Shown one piece after another: positions 3,836 through 37,609 of a stretch of 64,000 nt of DNA (position 1 is the first letter of the stretch; the number at the start of each line of letters is the position of its first letter). Below the pieces are notes generated by a model. The model did no database searches. It saw only the letters and a program-made list of their open reading frames with translations, and was not told where the DNA came from. The translations under genes and the position numbers were made by a program. Source of the DNA: Escherichia virus TH06; sequence record MT446386.1; one strand, given 5' to 3'.

Positions 3836-3997
3836 ATGATCACACAAGCAGATAAAAATAAACTCTTCGACTTAATCCATGACCTACTAGAAGCTCAGAG
3901 CTTTATTGACAATGCCGATACTTGGGAGATGGAAGCAGCTGGAAAAGCTTTTGATGAAAGTGAAGAGAAACTTACTAATTTTATAAACACAATCTAG
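3836..3997 (+). CDS. hypothetical small protein (53 aa)
   Basis: Open frame from ATG 3836 to TAG 3995..3997, translated by hand. Confidence 0.25.
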   Translation: MITQADKNKLFDLIHDLLEAQSFIDNADTWEMEAAGKAFDESEEKLTNFINTI

Positions 3998-31515: not shown

Positions 31516-33057
31516 TTAGTAACTCTGATTCCATCTGCTTACGTTTGCCTCATACAGAGAAGCACTTCCGTAGCTAACGTCATGCTTAGAGCGACCACGA
31601 TGTGTAACAGAGCACGCTGAATAGCGCATTGCATCCATTAAGTCATCATGTTCTTTAATAATCTTACCAACCTTACGGTGATATCTAGCTTTCTCTTCGA
31701 ATAGCTTAGCATTAGCGGCTGTGTTAAAGATTTTAAAGCGTCCACTCATCATTCTTTCTCGGATATCTGTGATTCCCGGTTCTACAAAGAAGTTCTTTTT
31801 ACCATCCATTCCAATTTTGTTGTAGAAGGTCTCACTCTGTACGTTAACTCCTGCATTCTTATAGAATTGAGCAACAGATGAGCCACTACCTTTCTCAATA
31901 TTGTCCGCATCGTGCGGTAGGATGACAGGAATCCACTGACCACGACCATTAATAGCTGGAGCATGATACACTGGAGTAAAGCCACCTTCTTTATATGAGT
32001 CGTAAACATAGATAGTATCCGTGTTTGCATCGTAAGCTGTCCAAACAGCAGCAGTTGGGTGATCAATACCAATATCAATTGCACAGACACGTTTCCACGT
32101 ATCAGGAATTTCGAATGGTTCACATTTAATTGTGTCATCCGATACATCATAAATCAAACCACTTCCTAACAATGGCATACCTTTCGAACGCATCTCTAAC
32201 TGCCACGCTGGAATACCTTCAGTCATATCTTTTATATCTTGGTCAGTGATATGTCCACCTAGGTCTGCATGAGCATCCCACCAAGAAGCGTTCTGGAAAT
32301 ATAGAGAACCTGTGTTCTCATCCCCTTCACCTTTCATAAATTTATCTACCAGTTCAGTTAAACCGTTCTCTGGTGTAGCTGTAATTGTAACTAGACCTTT
32401 AGTTGTGAGTGTACGTGTGACGCACTGTGCGAATATAGCCATAGACTCGTATGGATCTTCTTCGTCTAACCAAATGTAGTCAACTGTTGCACCCATCAAT
32501 GTGTGTTCACCCTGTTGGGTTGAACGGAATTCTAATGTACTTAAACCGTCAAACTCCCCTCTCTCATTTTGATGTTTGATTTGTACGATTTGAAGTTTGT
32601 TACCATCTCGTTCTATCGTGTCAATGACGATAGCATCACGAGGAATGACACCTGTCCCCAATAAGTTTGTATCCTTTCCGATAGGTGTACCAAACAATTC
32701 CTTTTGCAATACTTTCCTTGTGGAATCCCCTGTAATACCAACTGCCCATGCTAAGATAGGTCTTTTAAATTTATATCCTGTCCACCAAGTTGGGTAGCGA
32801 CCTGTGACATGACAAGCAAACTCGTATGCCTCGCTATAAGATTTACCAACACGGTTCGCTGCACACAAGAATCTAAAGCGATGCTTCAATCCTGCTGCAT
32901 AAAATTTCTTTTGGAAGTCATACGCCTTGAAAGACAAAATCTTATTATACTTCCTCCATTGGTCACGCTCTTTCAACATATTCAATAGTGCTTTCTTTTC
33001 CTCTACACTAAGATTGTTACCAGTTAGAGCTTCATAAATTTGTTTATCTAATGACAT
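31516..33057 (-). CDS. terminase large subunit
   Basis: Walker A-like CAANRVGKS, Walker B-like WLDEEDP, C-terminal nuclease-like DIGIDHPTAAV. Confidence 0.75.
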   Translation of the reverse strand: MSLDKQIYEALTGNNLSVEEKKALLNMLKERDQWRKYNKILSFKAYDFQKKFYAAGLKHRFRFLCAANRVGKSYSEAYEFACHVTGRYPTWWTGYKFKRPILAWAVGITGDSTRKVLQKELFGTPIGKDTNLLGTGVIPRDAIVIDTIERDGNKLQIVQIKHQNERGEFDGLSTLEFRSTQQGEHTLMGATVDYIWLDEEDPYESMAIFAQCVTRTLTTKGLVTITATPENGLTELVDKFMKGEGDENTGSLYFQNASWWDAHADLGGHITDQDIKDMTEGIPAWQLEMRSKGMPLLGSGLIYDVSDDTIKCEPFEIPDTWKRVCAIDIGIDHPTAAVWTAYDANTDTIYVYDSYKEGGFTPVYHAPAINGRGQWIPVILPHDADNIEKGSGSSVAQFYKNAGVNVQSETFYNKIGMDGKKNFFVEPGITDIRERMMSGRFKIFNTAANAKLFEEKARYHRKVGKIIKEHDDLMDAMRYSACSVTHRGRSKHDVSYGSASLYEANVSRWNQSY

Positions 33058-33126: not shown

Positions 33127-33600
33127 TTAACTCTCGTCCGCTTCCTCCCCCTTTTCAGCGTCCTCAGAGTTGTCTTCTTCTGGAGGCATAACGTCGATAC
33201 CAAGTGCTCCAGTCAAGAAGTCCTTGATTTGTGCATTCAATGATTCTTCGTTGATTACATTCTCTTCCTCAATCTTAACTTCAACAGAGGCCGCCTTAGG
33301 ATATACCAGATCTGCAACTTTTGATGCAGCCTTGAATCTAAGATCAGGTGGAATATTAGGATCTTCGTAAATTTGAATTAACACTTCATCAGGAGACAAA
33401 TGACTTGCAGCAACACGGTCCAACATTAATTGTGTCAGTTTACCTCTACTACCTCTGGGTCGTCCGAATTTATTTCCCTTTTGAAACTTCCCATTGCTTG
33501 GATTCATACCACGGCCTTCAAGTTCTTCCGTTACTCCGGGTAATCTTCCTGTAATCTCAGCTACCTGTGCAGGCGTGAGTTCTCCGTTTTCTCCAAACAT
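33127..33600 (-). CDS. terminase small subunit (putative)
   Basis: Basic segment GNKFGRPRGSRGKLTQ and acidic C-terminus; directly upstream of large terminase. Confidence 0.45.
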   Translation of the reverse strand: MFGENGELTPAQVAEITGRLPGVTEELEGRGMNPSNGKFQKGNKFGRPRGSRGKLTQLMLDRVAASHLSPDEVLIQIYEDPNIPPDLRFKAASKVADLVYPKAASVEVKIEEENVINEESLNAQIKDFLTGALGIDVMPPEEDNSEDAEKGEEADES

Positions 33601-33656: not shown

Positions 33657-34289
33657 TTACTTACAATCACCAACGGACAGGTTAAACATCTTACCTAGAG
33701 CAATCGTCTCACCTTCCCACGGAAGTTCTGCACCCTTCTCTTCCTCTAAAAGAATAGAGCCGTCGACCAAAAATTTTTCGTAGTCTCGCAGTGCGTCGTC
33801 TACTAGCTCACTCTTGTGAATCCATGTAATTGTTTCTGTACCATCCTCTTCGATTCTAACATCACGATGCCATTCATCTTTGGAGGTAATATAATCATGG
33901 AGCATTTCGTATTCAGCTTCTTCAATCATCTCAATCATTGCACGAGCATAGTCAGGGAGGTGATCATGTTTAGTAGATTCGTATTCAACTACTTCCAGAG
34001 TAGAAGGCTTAGCCCGTGCAACTTCTTCAAGTACTTTTGAGCGATCTTTGTAGTAGTTCTCATATTTATCACCAATAGTACCGACTTGAAGTCCACGGTA
34101 TTGTTCTACTAAACTCATCATATCTTTCTTCTCCGTAATAGTTGGTTTAAGAATACTTCCACTATATAAATCTTGTACAGCCAATCCTGAAACATTTCCC
34201 ATAGTTTCTAAATGCTGTAAGCTACAACCAGATCGACATAGCTGTGAATTGTAATCGTTAAGGTCCATCGCTTGGATTAAATTATTCAT
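33657..34289 (-). CDS. hypothetical protein
   Basis: Start chosen at MNNLIQ with RBS AGGGAGA; track start 34364 would overlap the upstream gene. Confidence 0.4.
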   Translation of the reverse strand: MNNLIQAMDLNDYNSQLCRSGCSLQHLETMGNVSGLAVQDLYSGSILKPTITEKKDMMSLVEQYRGLQVGTIGDKYENYYKDRSKVLEEVARAKPSTLEVVEYESTKHDHLPDYARAMIEMIEEAEYEMLHDYITSKDEWHRDVRIEEDGTETITWIHKSELVDDALRDYEKFLVDGSILLEEEKGAELPWEGETIALGKMFNLSVGDCK

Positions 34290-34536
34290 TTGTATCTCCC
34301 TTGCTGTAATCTTTGTATGTTTCTTTTCTGTAAGTGCGGAATGCTCTGAAGAAGAGCCAACCAAAACTACTTACATCAATTGTAATATCGAAATCTGTTT
34401 CATCATCTAAATCAACAAGACGGCCTAAGCAAGTAGCTTCCATCCCTTCTTCAGAGTCACTGTTGACCACGAAAGCGTATGTCTCCGTTCTGAACCGAGG
34501 CACCATCTCTGATAAAAAGTCTAGTACTAAATTCAT
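34282..34536 (-). CDS. hypothetical acidic protein (84 aa)
   Basis: ATG preceded by GAGGAGAAG. Confidence 0.4.
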   Translation of the reverse strand: MNLVLDFLSEMVPRFRTETYAFVVNSDSEEGMEATCLGRLVDLDDETDFDITIDVSSFGWLFFRAFRTYRKETYKDYSKGDTNE

Positions 34537-34768
34537 AATTCTTCTCCTCTGAATAAGAGTATAAAGGGCACATCATAAGACCTACCCGTAAAGGCCACCT
34601 CACATTAACACCCGTGAGAATACCTGTATTCATTTTCGTAGTCTTCTTCAGAGAAGCTACCGTATTCATCTTCTGTCATACATCCCTCTGATAAAGTTAA
34701 GACATAAAGGGGACGTCATCTTTGATGACTACTTCACATTAAGGCACCCCCATAAAGGCCATGTCACG

Positions 34769-34933
34769 TTAAGGCCTATCCATCCATGTGCTGTGTTTAA
34801 GCTTACCACATTTACTACATCTCCAAGTGGACTTATAAAGGGTGTGAACTCTTTCATCCCCGTAAGCTTTGCGTATCCGATAGTACTCATGATCACATTT
34901 GAATTGCTTAATGATTAACTTAATTTTCCACAT
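34769..34933 (-). CDS. small Cys-containing protein (54 aa), first ORF of the late operon
   Basis: Hand-translated MWKIKLIIKQFKCDHEYY...WRCSKCGKLKH; below the track cutoff. Confidence 0.3.
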   Translation of the reverse strand: MWKIKLIIKQFKCDHEYYRIRKAYGDERVHTLYKSTWRCSKCGKLKHSTWMDRP

Positions 34934-35658
34934 AAGTTCTCTTTCAACCTTATATATAAGAGTTTAAAATTCTGATTTGACTGAGTAGGGCTAGCCGCTT
35001 CCCGCGCGTTTCCTAAAAGGGGGGAGTCCTCATTTAAAAAAGGGTTATTGGCAATGCCTTTACCTTCCTTTTCAACGTTCCACTTTTCCCCGTGCCTACT
35101 CCCCGTTATTCTTTCCCCGTGTATACCATCCTATTCATTAGCTACCCGTTTATTTAGTACCCCTTTAAAGAGTGAGAGAAAGGCTATACTCTGATAACGG
35201 TCTGTTAAGGCGTGATAATAACAGGTCTAATAATACCCCTAGTTACTACCCCATTCCCCCATAGTTACGTTGATAATAGTTTCAATAGTAATGATTATGA
35301 GTGCAATAATGATATATGTATTAATTAAGTGGATGATTGTGTTTCTTTTATTCTTTTCTTTTTCAGCGTGCCTTTGTGAGCGTAGCGAACGTCTTTGATG
35401 TTTGAGTTATACAATTATTTAAGTGGTATATTATTACCGCACTATCTTGCTATGTTTCCCCGTGGTCTGTTCTGCGGTTGTGTGTTCCCCGTTTGCCCTG
35501 GTCTGTTGGTCTGCTACCCGTAGCACCAGCGTAACACCCGTAGGATTAGTGTTATAAAGTAACAATAGCTAGTAAGCTGATTCTCTGAGTATGGAAAGTT
35601 TAGTAAATTAAATTCCTTTAGTTTTCAGTGAGTTATAAGAAAGTTAGAAAATAAATGG

Positions 35659-35686
35659 TTGACAGGTTTTTCCTTTATTATATAGT
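35659..35686 (+). promoter_or_regulatory. sigma70-type early promoter
   Basis: TTGACA, 16 nt spacer, TATAGT; A-rich upstream; about 45 nt before the ATG at 35731. Confidence 0.5.
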
Positions 35687-35730
35687 TGCGATTGTAATTT
35701 GTAGTTTTCATCAACCATAAGGAATATCAA

Positions 35731-36603
35731 ATGTCTAAAGTAGCAATTAACCACTTGAACAAAGCAAACGAAAGTCTTTCCTCTTTAGGCTTAACTGTTG
35801 GTAGTCCTGATGCGTGGATGGAAAACGAAAGCGCACGTAAAGGATTCAAAAACTCTGTAATGCTGGCTTGCTTGATCATTAATTCTACTGCGAACGCTTT
35901 ACAGTGTGAAGATGAAAGCACGTTCAAAGAGAACGGTTTTACCGATATGCAGGACGCTATCAATTGTTACATTCAAGCGAATTTGGATAGCTGGAATCAG
36001 AAAGATTGGCCTGAGTCATGCCGTGATGTGAAAGCTGAATTATCCCGCTTGTCTGTCATGGTTGAAGCATGGAACAAGAAAAACAAGAAACAGCCAATCA
36101 AGCCTACTGTTGCAAGTAAGATTATGAAGTCTGTTAATCTGGCAAGTTATGCACTGGTTGCAGCTATCGGTGTTAGTGCACTGGTCACATCTCTTTCTGA
36201 TAAGGCTATCGCTAGTCCTGCTCCTGCAACTGATGCGGCTAGTGTCTTCTCTAGTTCCATCAATAAGGGTTGGATGATTTGCAACGGTGCGGATAGTGAC
36301 AGCAATAATATCGTGCTAAAGATGAAATTTAGCAACGTAACAAATGATGGCGTTCTCTTTCAATCTAAAACGTTAGATAATCAGCCTAACAGTGATCTAG
36401 TTCTCAAGCGTACTGATAACGATGCGGATATGGTGACATTTGGCACTGTACAACGTTACGAAGACGTTAAAGCTGTAACCAACCTAGTGAGCTATGGCCC
36501 GATCAATGAGTCGATGATTGCTACAACTGTTTACAATAACGCTGATAACGCTGTTTATACCGTTCACGTTAATTTAGCCAACTGTATTAAGGCTAGTAAG
36601 TAA
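35731..36603 (+). CDS. early membrane-associated protein
   Basis: RBS AAGGAA; central hydrophobic helix VNLASYALVAAIGVSALVTSL. Confidence 0.5.
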   Translation: MSKVAINHLNKANESLSSLGLTVGSPDAWMENESARKGFKNSVMLACLIINSTANALQCEDESTFKENGFTDMQDAINCYIQANLDSWNQKDWPESCRDVKAELSRLSVMVEAWNKKNKKQPIKPTVASKIMKSVNLASYALVAAIGVSALVTSLSDKAIASPAPATDAASVFSSSINKGWMICNGADSDSNNIVLKMKFSNVTNDGVLFQSKTLDNQPNSDLVLKRTDNDADMVTFGTVQRYEDVKAVTNLVSYGPINESMIATTVYNNADNAVYTVHVNLANCIKASK

Positions 36604-36628: not shown

Positions 36629-36892
36629 ATGGCTATCAAAGAAGTTAGATTATCTAATGGCTATTCTGTTTTTGTTGGCGATACCGCTATCACGTTTAAT
36701 CTGCGTCATGGTCAGTTAACGTTGCCTGTTGTTACTTTCTGCGTTATGGATTTTAAACAGGCTAAAAATTGGCTATCTGCTATCGGCGTTGAAATTAACC
36801 GTGATGATTTTCGTTCTATATATTTTGACGGTGGCTTGTCACTGGCTAACCTGCTCAATCATGGCCTTGTTGGAGGTGGCACTAATGGGTAA
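36629..36892 (+). CDS. hypothetical protein
   Basis: ORF with RBS GGAG upstream. Confidence 0.45.
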   Translation: MAIKEVRLSNGYSVFVGDTAITFNLRHGQLTLPVVTFCVMDFKQAKNWLSAIGVEINRDDFRSIYFDGGLSLANLLNHGLVGGGTNG

Positions 36893-37139: not shown

Positions 37140-37243
37140 TGATTCATGATTATTTTTGGCGTTGCTTGTTCGTTGTTACAGTGGCGTTATTCGTCGCTGA
37201 TATGCTTTATTCTTATATTCTCTAACTATAGGTGATTATTATC

Positions 37244-37609
37244 ATGGGTATTATCAAATTTGTAGTAAAAGTATTCGTGGGCTTCTTCCTTGTCGTTCTC
37301 CTGCTGGGTGTGCTCCTATCGGCTATGGGTAGCGTTAAGGCTGCAACATTCTCCCCTGCTACGGTTGACGGCTTGCAATGTACTTATCTTGTAGAAAACT
37401 ATGAAACCGGTAAAAAGTCACCTAAAGTTATTATTTTGCATGTAAATGATTTCGATCATGTGCAATCATATGATAAAACTGTTCAACTGGTAAATGAAAC
37501 AACCGGTAAACAAGTCATGATTGATCACTTGATGCGCTCATCGTTAACGCTCTTTGATGAGTCCATGAATGAAATTGAATCCGGTAACGGTCAATGTGTA
37601 AATCCATAG
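37244..37609 (+). CDS. secreted/membrane protein
   Basis: RBS AGGTGA 9 nt upstream; N-terminal signal-like hydrophobic region. Confidence 0.45.
   Translation: MGIIKFVVKVFVGFFLVVLLLGVLLSAMGSVKAATFSPATVDGLQCTYLVENYETGKKSPKVIILHVNDFDHVQSYDKTVQLVNETTGKQVMIDHLMRSSLTLFDESMNEIESGNGQCVNP

Follow-up and report, generated by a model that had tools for sequence, protein, structure and literature searches.

We analysed a window of 64,000 nucleotides from Escherichia virus TH06 (MT446386.1), in which a non-coding region of 791 nt (34940-35730) is flanked by a small minus-strand ORF on its left and a plus-strand gene of 290 codons on its right. The first rightward gene (35731..36603, + strand, 290 aa) is an early gene homologous to phi32_128 (PHROG 36409, E = 7e-203), and it showed no Pfam match and no PDB match. 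The first leftward small ORF (34769..34933, - strand, 54 aa) matched PHROG 7696 (E = 6e-17). An alternative ORF at 34729-34896 overlaps it in a different frame, and the annotation of phiEco32 uses that other frame (phi32_1), not that of the 54-aa ORF. Considering that the ORFs overlap in two frames, the coding status of 34769-34933 is uncertain. A first, sequence-only reading of this DNA had named both flanking ORFs, which exist as it stated, but its description of the left one as late was not upheld: the SU10 paper (PMC4281155) assigns the short leftward ORFs of this end to the early class. Further to the left, TerL (31516-33057, - strand) carries Pfam Terminase_6N and Terminase_6C, and a putative TerS (33127..33600, - strand) lies directly upstream of it, both genes being located 1.4-3.5 kb left of the junction described below. 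This synteny is that of Kuravirus, with the terminase on the left arm and the early genes and the sigma70 promoter on the right arm. No tRNAs were found in the region, and ORF calls within 34940-35730 are spurious. A coding reading of 35186-35650 was rejected, as this stretch holds only ORFs of 30-48 aa and the indels of the relatives are not multiples of three.

The region showed divergent promoters, as had been suggested from the sequence. The rightward, early promoter (35659..35686, + strand) is of sigma70 type, TTGACA-16-TATAGT, and matched 11/12 consensus positions in a promoter scan. In the SU7 and 4E8 records the homologous sites carry a promoter annotation, and the SU10 authors list a homologous early promoter upstream of CDS125 (PMC4281155). 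The predicted leftward promoter (34953..34981, - strand; GTCAAA-17-TATATA) is a weak, sigma70-like one below the scan threshold, and part of the perfect palindrome CTTATATATAAG (34949-34960) falls within it. Ahead of CDS1, Table S2 of the SU10 paper lists the homologous stretch as a potential sigma70 promoter (PMC4281155). In a 14-sequence alignment of relatives, from which all conservation scores given here were obtained, 34950-34990 scored 0.93-0.97; the whole stretch 34949-34992, which holds the 12-nt palindrome and the predicted leftward promoter, is highly conserved. Another element, TGGTATATT (35424..35432, + strand), resembles an extended -10 element. It is invariant and lies within a conserved block (35420-35445, 0.95-0.96), and it was unreported by the promoter scan because it has no -35 element. 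From these features we only infer a candidate second rightward promoter. A promoter for the phage sigma factor (gp36) was rejected: the published motif, tAATGTATAtA, had no good match, and its matches across the window were at chance level.

The terminal repeat and its boundaries

In DNA searches, the region matched 90 phage records with 82-98% identity, all of them from the Escherichia/Shigella phiEco32 group (Kuravirus, Gordonclarkvirinae), and no non-Kuravirus record was among the matches listed. The first 193 nt of phiEco32 are exactly its last 193 nt. We rebuilt the phiEco32 junction from the reverse complement of the left arm, one copy of the repeat and the right arm, and the rebuilt junction was colinear with the window, with the terminal repeat (DTR) falling at 34993-35185. 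Two insertions and one deletion distinguish the window from phiEco32: 12 nt are inserted directly to the right of the DTR, and in the left flank 65 nt are deleted and 18 nt inserted. The annotated 193-bp DTR of YF01 maps to the same positions. The records of phiEco32, SU10, YF01 and NC-B end at window position 34993, and those of Paul and CHD5UKE1 end at 35185|35186. The matches that stop at the ends of the relatives' records and the colinearity of the phiEco32 junction indicate that the window comes from a circularly permuted assembly in which the repeats were collapsed. Here the 193-bp DTR is present as a single collapsed copy (34993..35185), placed by the phiEco32 alignment, the YF01 annotation and the ends of the relatives' records.

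The ends of the relatives have been mapped by several methods. The repeat of phiEco32 was established via restriction mapping, primer walking and subcloning. Full-length nanopore reads of YF01 carry 193-bp repeats at both ends, and similarity searches identified repeats of 192-193 bp in 30 members of the phiEco32 group (PMC9965538). The reads of SU10 fall off abruptly beyond the final base of each repeat, pointing to blunt ends (PMC4281155), and the Paul genome was reopened at a boundary predicted by PhageTerm (PMC6787329). By homology to these mapped relatives, we infer the ends of TH06, whose virion DNA would carry the 193-bp DTR at both ends. The sequence-only reading had considered that the window may span the physical ends of a linear genome, and had named comparison with related phages as a check. 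The window appears to span these ends, the DTR being placed by the ends of phiEco32, YF01, SU10 and Paul, and the comparison gave the same two boundaries in YF01, SU10 and Paul. For annotation, the start and end of the linear genome are fixed by this placement: a corrected record should be reversed so as to begin at window position 35185, which is phiEco32 coordinate 1, and should carry the 193-bp repeat twice.

Both boundaries have a similar form. The left boundary (34989..34996) is GGCTAGCC, a perfect 8-nt palindrome whose centre would be the cut site (34992/34993), and its context reads GGGCT^AGCC. In 11/11 relatives spanning this boundary, the sequence conforms to ...G[GC]C[TC]^AG[GC]C, and the records of phiEco32, YF01, 4E8 and NC-B start with AG... 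at this position. The right boundary (35182..35186) is GGCT^A, with the putative cut between 35185 and 35186, and (A/G)AGGC[TC]^A was found there in 16/16 sequences of the boundary table. The cut is followed by AG in most sequences, and by AT in the window, TH38 and YF01. This form is kept at both edges in all relatives compared, also in those of other genera, where homology gives repeat lengths of 205-206 or ~250 nt. Homology to the relatives shows that each DTR boundary would be cut in the middle of a GGCT^AG-type site. With 18 occurrences in the window, GGCTAG cannot define the ends alone and was rejected as a sole cut signal.

The most conserved block of the DTR is TAAAAGGGGGGAGTCCTCATTT (35014..35035, conservation 0.93-1.00), which sits 21-42 nt inside the left boundary. 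This block corresponds to nt ~130-170 of the DTR, a stretch that the YF01 authors describe as highly conserved (PMC9965538). It is also kept in two metagenome contigs of 88-90 kb, L027 (21/22) and L026 (19/20), whose putative TerS is 66-67% identical. To the right of the DTR, the order of elements is a variable stretch of 70 nt, an AT-rich core, TGGTATATT, a repeat array and the sigma70 promoter. The 70-nt stretch is poorly conserved, and its score of 0.26 is the lowest of the region. The AT-rich core (35255..35369, conservation 0.83-1.00) ends in the T-rich tract TTTCTTTTATTCTTTTCTTTTTCAGCGT; if the region were an origin, this core would be the place of the DNA-unwinding element. We also noticed by eye, in the unaligned sequence of a distant contig (L029, ~3955-3975), a similar A/G-rich tract in the opposite orientation, CTGAAAGAAAAAGAAAAG.

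The CCCCGT and GGTCTG arrays in TH06 and its relatives

The region contains short repeats in one orientation. TTCCCCGT occurs at 35086, 35113, 35456 and 35485, with no further copy on either strand of the 64-kb window. The shorter CCCGT occurs eight times on the plus strand of the region (35089, 35102, 35116, 35145, 35459, 35488, 35517 and 35537), against 0.3 expected from its rate in the rest of the window, and zero times on the minus strand. The three copies of GGTCTGTT, at 35199, 35464 and 35500, are its sole plus-strand copies in the window, and an additional copy of GGTCTG at 35508 brings the total of this motif in the region to four. Of 20,000 versions of the 791-nt region simulated with a first-order Markov model, 0.015% had at least eight CCCGT, and none had at least four GGTCTG or at least four TTCCCCGT. 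The densest 1-kb stretch of the window is 34551-35550, with 11 plus-strand CCCGT, where no other reaches more than 4; given a background of 0.37 per kb, the Poisson probability is ~3e-13. These 11 units comprise four in the DTR, four in the right flank and three in the left flank (34585, 34611 and 34859), the last three having the same orientation as the others. The repeats are genuine and far beyond chance. Accordingly, the short repeats that had been claimed from the sequence were all recovered at their positions (eight CCCGT, four TTCCCCGT, three GGTCTGTT), and so were the claimed AT-rich tracts, with GC contents of 23-25% at 35280-35370 and 25-30% at 35550-35730.

Most units of the region form two arrays on the plus strand. 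Array A (35086..35150) lies inside the DTR and consists of TTCCCCGT at 35086, CTCCCCGT at 35099, TTCCCCGT at 35113 and CTACCCGT at 35142. Array B (35456..35543) lies ~270 bp right of the DTR, just downstream of TGGTATATT, and consists of TTCCCCGT at 35456 and 35485 and ACCCGTAG at 35516 and 35536, interleaved with GGTCTG(TT) at 35464, 35500 and 35508. The third copy of GGTCTGTT (35199..35206, + strand) stands 14 nt right of the DTR in a segment that few relatives have, and among the relatives compared GGTCTG was found at this site only in the window, TH38 and XT32. Short-repeat arrays of this kind had been called typical of phage genome ends, packaging starts or origins. The repeats do lie in the end region, but they are not what marks the ends: these are defined by the GGCT^AG boundaries, and half of the repeats are outside the DTR.

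The two arrays showed different patterns of conservation. On the one hand, the in-DTR motif columns (six per unit) scored 0.958 against 0.860 for the rest of the DTR (Mann-Whitney p = 4e-4), and the units of array A are kept in DTR-spanning relatives, including EP335 and 4E8, with varying spacers. On the other hand, the motif columns of array B were no more conserved than neighbouring columns, because its units shift position between phages. Each relative compared has 2-5 CCCGT at the position of array B, on a constant strand, with zero on the opposite strand. In NC-B, SU7 and Bas88, the in-repeat units are three copies of CTACCCAT and one of CTACCCGT, and the right-flank array has up to five CCCGT together with GGTCTG; in NC-B, three of these follow at 7-nt spacing. 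In L029, which is a distant 92-kb contig with a small terminase 45% identical, ACTATGG units replace CCCCGT and flank, left and right, a conserved CCCCCTTTTA...GCTAGC segment that is homologous to the terminus of the window. Kuravirus, Nieuwekanaalvirus and Suseptimavirus-like phages agree in the number and orientation of the units and differ in their spacers and positions. This persistence of number, place and orientation despite the turnover of sequence suggests protein-binding sites that co-evolve with their reader rather than leftover duplications. We therefore consider that the arrays are probably protein-binding sites.

Readings of the units as structured nucleic acid were rejected. There was no Rfam match over 34300-36000 (E <= 1), the DTR folded as single-stranded DNA worse than its shuffles (z = +1.46), and array B folded as RNA gave z = -0.65. 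Since there is no significant fold and no Rfam match, the units, if they act, would act as duplex sites. A scan of contigs with the 14-mer ATGAGGACTCCCCC gave 78 matches, nearly all on size-unrelated viral contigs and probably due to chance; the only informative matches were on contigs of already known family membership.

We considered the putative TerS as the reader of these sites. When its profile was compared with solved structures, the top two matches were 7joq (E = 0.003) and 6w7t (PaP3, E = 0.09), both deposited as small terminase subunits, with weak E values. The YF01 paper reports the same link of TerS to small terminases by HHpred (PMC9965538). The AlphaFold model of the putative TerS had low confidence (pLDDT 67), and a Foldseek search with this model gave no significant match. 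Kuravirus and the SU7/ECBP2 group share ~90% identity in TerS, and 3/4 DTR units differ between them (CCCCGT vs ACCCAT). The role of TerS as array reader is weakened, as TerS is nearly identical where the DTR units differ, which argues that TerS would either not be a specific reader of the units or tolerate G/A at that position. For the same reason, the block at 35014-35035 appears to be the better candidate for a primary site, and we consider it the best candidate for a terminase (TerS) recognition site, more likely than the arrays.

A proposed genome-end junction and its alternatives

The region is very probably the genome-end (concatemer) junction of a phiEco32-like Kuravirus in a circularly permuted assembly, with a mechanism that we propose from sequence comparison as follows. 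Concatemers would be matured T7-style, in that the terminase would recognise the junction and cut or nick both boundaries, and the DTR would be duplicated during concatemer maturation. T7-style maturation is likewise assumed by the SU10 and YF01 authors, who remark that phiEco32-like phages have no RNA polymerase of their own, which T7 uses in maturation (PMC4281155, PMC9965538). The surroundings of the DTR are shown by homology: on its right lies a non-coding leader of ~470 bp and then the strong sigma70 promoter, which drives the early genes rightward, and on its left lies the weaker, predicted promoter of the small genes, which are read leftward in the direction of the terminase.

Within this junction, the part played by the arrays is more tentative. 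With chances that we hold to be a little short of even, the CCCCGT/ACCCGT units and GGTCTG would be site arrays for an asymmetric protein that marks or organises the end for packaging or end processing. A more specific form of this proposal is possible but rather doubtful: the arrays, with CTACCCAT or ACTATGG as their motif in other lineages, would belong to an end-marking class that is new to the literature and functionally equivalent to CCTAAAG of T7, and their reader would be a co-evolving phage protein distinct from TerS.

The layout is already known for the phiEco32 family and is much like that of T7; it is real and largely ordinary. The DTR and the early promoter are also already described for this family. 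A word search of the SU10, YF01, Paul, SU7 and Privateer papers retrieved no passage on the CCCCGT/GGTCTG arrays or their turnover, on a palindromic boundary or on the deep conservation of 35014-35035. The arrays offer a clean, conserved and strand-specific site set in a phage family that is used in therapy and in transcription studies. The GGCT^AGCC palindrome and the 35014-35035 block are targets for studying how blunt, repeat-bearing ends are formed without a phage RNA polymerase.

A replication origin near the genome end, made up of the arrays and the AT-rich core, is unlikely; in such an origin, either iteron-like CCCCGT units on both sides of an unwinding element of 23-25% GC would bind a phage initiator, or the GGTCTG units would be primase start sites. 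Two GC-richer arrays do flank a conserved AT-rich core with a T-tract, but DnaA boxes and IHF sites were not beyond chance: no IHF match was found near the region, one DnaA-box-like match lies just to its left inside the first small ORF (34924-34932), and both patterns were at chance level across the window. No initiator gene was found adjoining the region either, its neighbours having no match to a replication-initiator family. TGGTC, which is a recognition sequence of the T7 primase, occurs three times in array B; however, the arrays share one orientation, where inward-facing priming sites would use opposite strands. The minimum of the cumulative GC skew falls in the region and is not diagnostic, because it coincides with the switch in transcription direction. 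The terminal non-coding regions of T7 hold the annotated phiOL and phiOR promoters, which are secondary replication origins. Against an origin in TH06, half of the units are inside a DTR that is defined by packaging. A literature search for an origin of phiEco32 gave nothing usable. Of the earlier suggestion of a divergent promoter and origin region, the promoters stood, and the origin gained no positive evidence, as DnaA and IHF sites are not enriched.

A role of the arrays at the leading end during infection, where a bound host or phage protein would control the early promoter, protect the entering DNA end or pace genome entry, is improbable. The early promoter has array B 120-200 bp upstream of it, with the conserved extended -10-like element preceding the array, but the units are too far and too many for a simple operator, and others stand in the DTR and the left flank, a long way from this promoter. 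The order of DTR, repeats, sigma70 promoters and early genes is that of the T7 left end. The early promoter is ~670 bp from the terminus, and T7 has its A1-A3 promoters in the ~850 bp of DNA that enter first.

That the repeats are functionless remnants of slippage or duplication, kept by descent in fast-evolving terminal DNA, would suit an indel-rich region with variable spacers and the array B units that are conserved no better than their alignment neighbours, but is very improbable given that conservation is significantly higher in the in-DTR units than in the DTR around them, that complete strand bias and unit number are kept across three genera despite turnover, that distant lineages hold other motifs in the same places (in L029, flanking the homologue of the terminus) and that the same design is found independently in T7.

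Comparison with known systems

The preferred reading, a genome-end junction with site arrays, can be compared with several known ends and origins. The ends of the Kuravirus phages phiEco32, SU10, YF01 and Paul are homologous in sequence, with 84-98% identity over the region, and have the same 193-bp DTR, boundaries, flanking genes and early promoter, and nothing essential differs. The LUZ24/PaP3/tf-like Pseudomonas podophages (Bruynoghevirus) have convergent gene arms, as here, and DTRs of 182-186 bp against 193 here. PaP3-type small terminases are the best solved-structure matches of the putative TerS, with weak similarity (E = 0.003-0.09), but the localized nicks of the tf type are not known in phiEco32-like phages.

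In terms of site arrangement, lambda cosB has R sites for terminase beside the cut. In SPP1 pac, several TerS contacts flank the cut (PMC7672466). As in these two systems, several short sites beside the cut could position an oligomeric DNA-binding protein in TH06. Unlike in these systems, the units here extend out to 500 bp from the cut and stand on either side of it, binding is only predicted, and the best-conserved candidate is one block (35014-35035) rather than an array. The likeness to iteron origins consists of directly repeated short units beside an AT-rich segment, with the arrays flanking 35280-35370. The region differs from iteron origins in having no adjacent initiator gene, no enrichment of DnaA and IHF sites and an irregular spacing (13-29 nt), and in that part of the array is inside the packaging-defined DTR.

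The T7 junction has an exact 160-bp DTR, where TH06 has 193 bp. As here, a motif of 6-7 nt occurs in a single orientation within the repeat and on either side of it, and promoters for E. coli RNA polymerase and the early genes come next. In T7, this motif is CCTAAAG, found in one orientation at 17-60, at 175-340, where it recurs every 13 nt, and on the left side of the right terminal repeat. From direct reading of both junctions, CCTAAAG and CCCCGT have no sequence similarity, and the T7 arrays, with their 13-nt period, are denser than those described here. Late genes run away from the junction in TH06, unlike in T7. Just after the terminal repeat, T7 has its pause signal, ATCTGTT (161-167); the only look-alike here is GGTCTGTT at 35199, which is absent from most relatives. 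Literature searches found no function for the T7 short repeats, and we know of no established function for the CCTAAAG arrays, and the analogy with T7 gives no mechanism for the arrays of TH06. The resemblance between the two junctions is one of design, not of descent. If the arrays do belong to a common end-marking class, solving one system would explain the one-orientation repeats around DTRs in unrelated podophage families.

Candidate promoter elements and gene names near the repeat

The perfect 12-nt palindrome CTTATATATAAG (window 34949-34960) is kept in nearly all relatives; it lies just outside the direct terminal repeat (DTR) and overlaps the -10 region of a putative leftward promoter. 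On the other side of the DTR, we found an extended -10-like sequence, TGGTATATT (window 35424-35432), within an invariant 28-nt block, ATTATTTAAGTGGTATATTATTACCGCA, and the array of CCCGT/GGTCTG units starts just downstream. We consider this site a possible second promoter for rightward transcription, one that is annotated in no record.

Three genes (37232-37609, + strand; 36629-36892, + strand; 33657-34364, - strand) have product names that were taken over from PHROGs and from the annotation of phiEco32. These names, 'terminase', 'polymerase' and 'ABC transporter', are unsupported by Pfam, and solved structures gave no meaningful match for the gene named 'terminase'. All three product names look unreliable.

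Genome ends and repeat length in relatives

Three metagenome contigs of 88-92 kb (L026, L027 and L029) encode a small terminase only 45-67% identical. The DTR core TGAGGACTCCCCCTTTTA is retained in L026 (3600-3618) and L027 (4013-4033), both of which also contain ACGGGG-like units, and L029 (4100-4640) retains CCCCCTTTTA...GCTAGC. In place of the ACGGGG-like units, ACTATGG units flank the putative end of L029 on both sides.

Among closer relatives, homology-defined boundaries gave a repeat of about 250 nt in the group of NC-B (1-250), Bas88 (1244-1492) and SU7. However, this length conflicts with the annotated or published lengths of 194 nt for NC-B and 53 nt for SU7 (1-53). The end of the SU7 record falls at ...AACC^AGTG, a boundary-like sequence that is internal to the longer repeat. 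The mismatch leaves two readings, errors in the NC-B and SU7 annotations or a cut site that shifted in that lineage.

The left flank and likenesses to T7 and PaP3

A second family of repeats, [AG]TAAAGG[GC].AC.TCA, is present in the left flank (window 34540-34870), with copies at 34561, 34588, 34704 and 34752. Three more CCCGT units occur there at 34585, 34611 and 34859, and all of these repeats are contained in tiny overlapping minus-strand ORFs. Compared with phiEco32, the window lacks 65 nt after 34674 and carries an extra 18 nt at about 34713-34730, two changes that disrupt the small genes phi32_1 and phi32_2, and the frame of the first leftward gene differs between records (34769-34933 or 34729-34896). 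Placed left of the repeat, the small genes here may in fact be non-coding repeats of the flank, a possible counterpart of those left of the right terminal repeat of T7.

The class II pause signal of T7 RNA polymerase, ATCTGTT, is located at 161-167 in T7, directly after the terminal repeat. The look-alike GGTCTGTT (window 35199-35206) lies 14 nt past the window's own repeat but is found at that position only in the window and TH38. Because the phiEco32-like family has no phage RNA polymerase (PMC4281155), this likeness is probably a coincidence. The repeat ends in a GC-rich stretch of 20 nt, AGCCGCTTCCCGCGCGTTTCC (window 34993-35015), that loosely resembles the 20-mer GCCGGCCCCTTTCCGCGTTA, which the small terminase of the Pseudomonas podophage PaP3 binds in vitro (PMC7672466), and this likeness may be due to chance.
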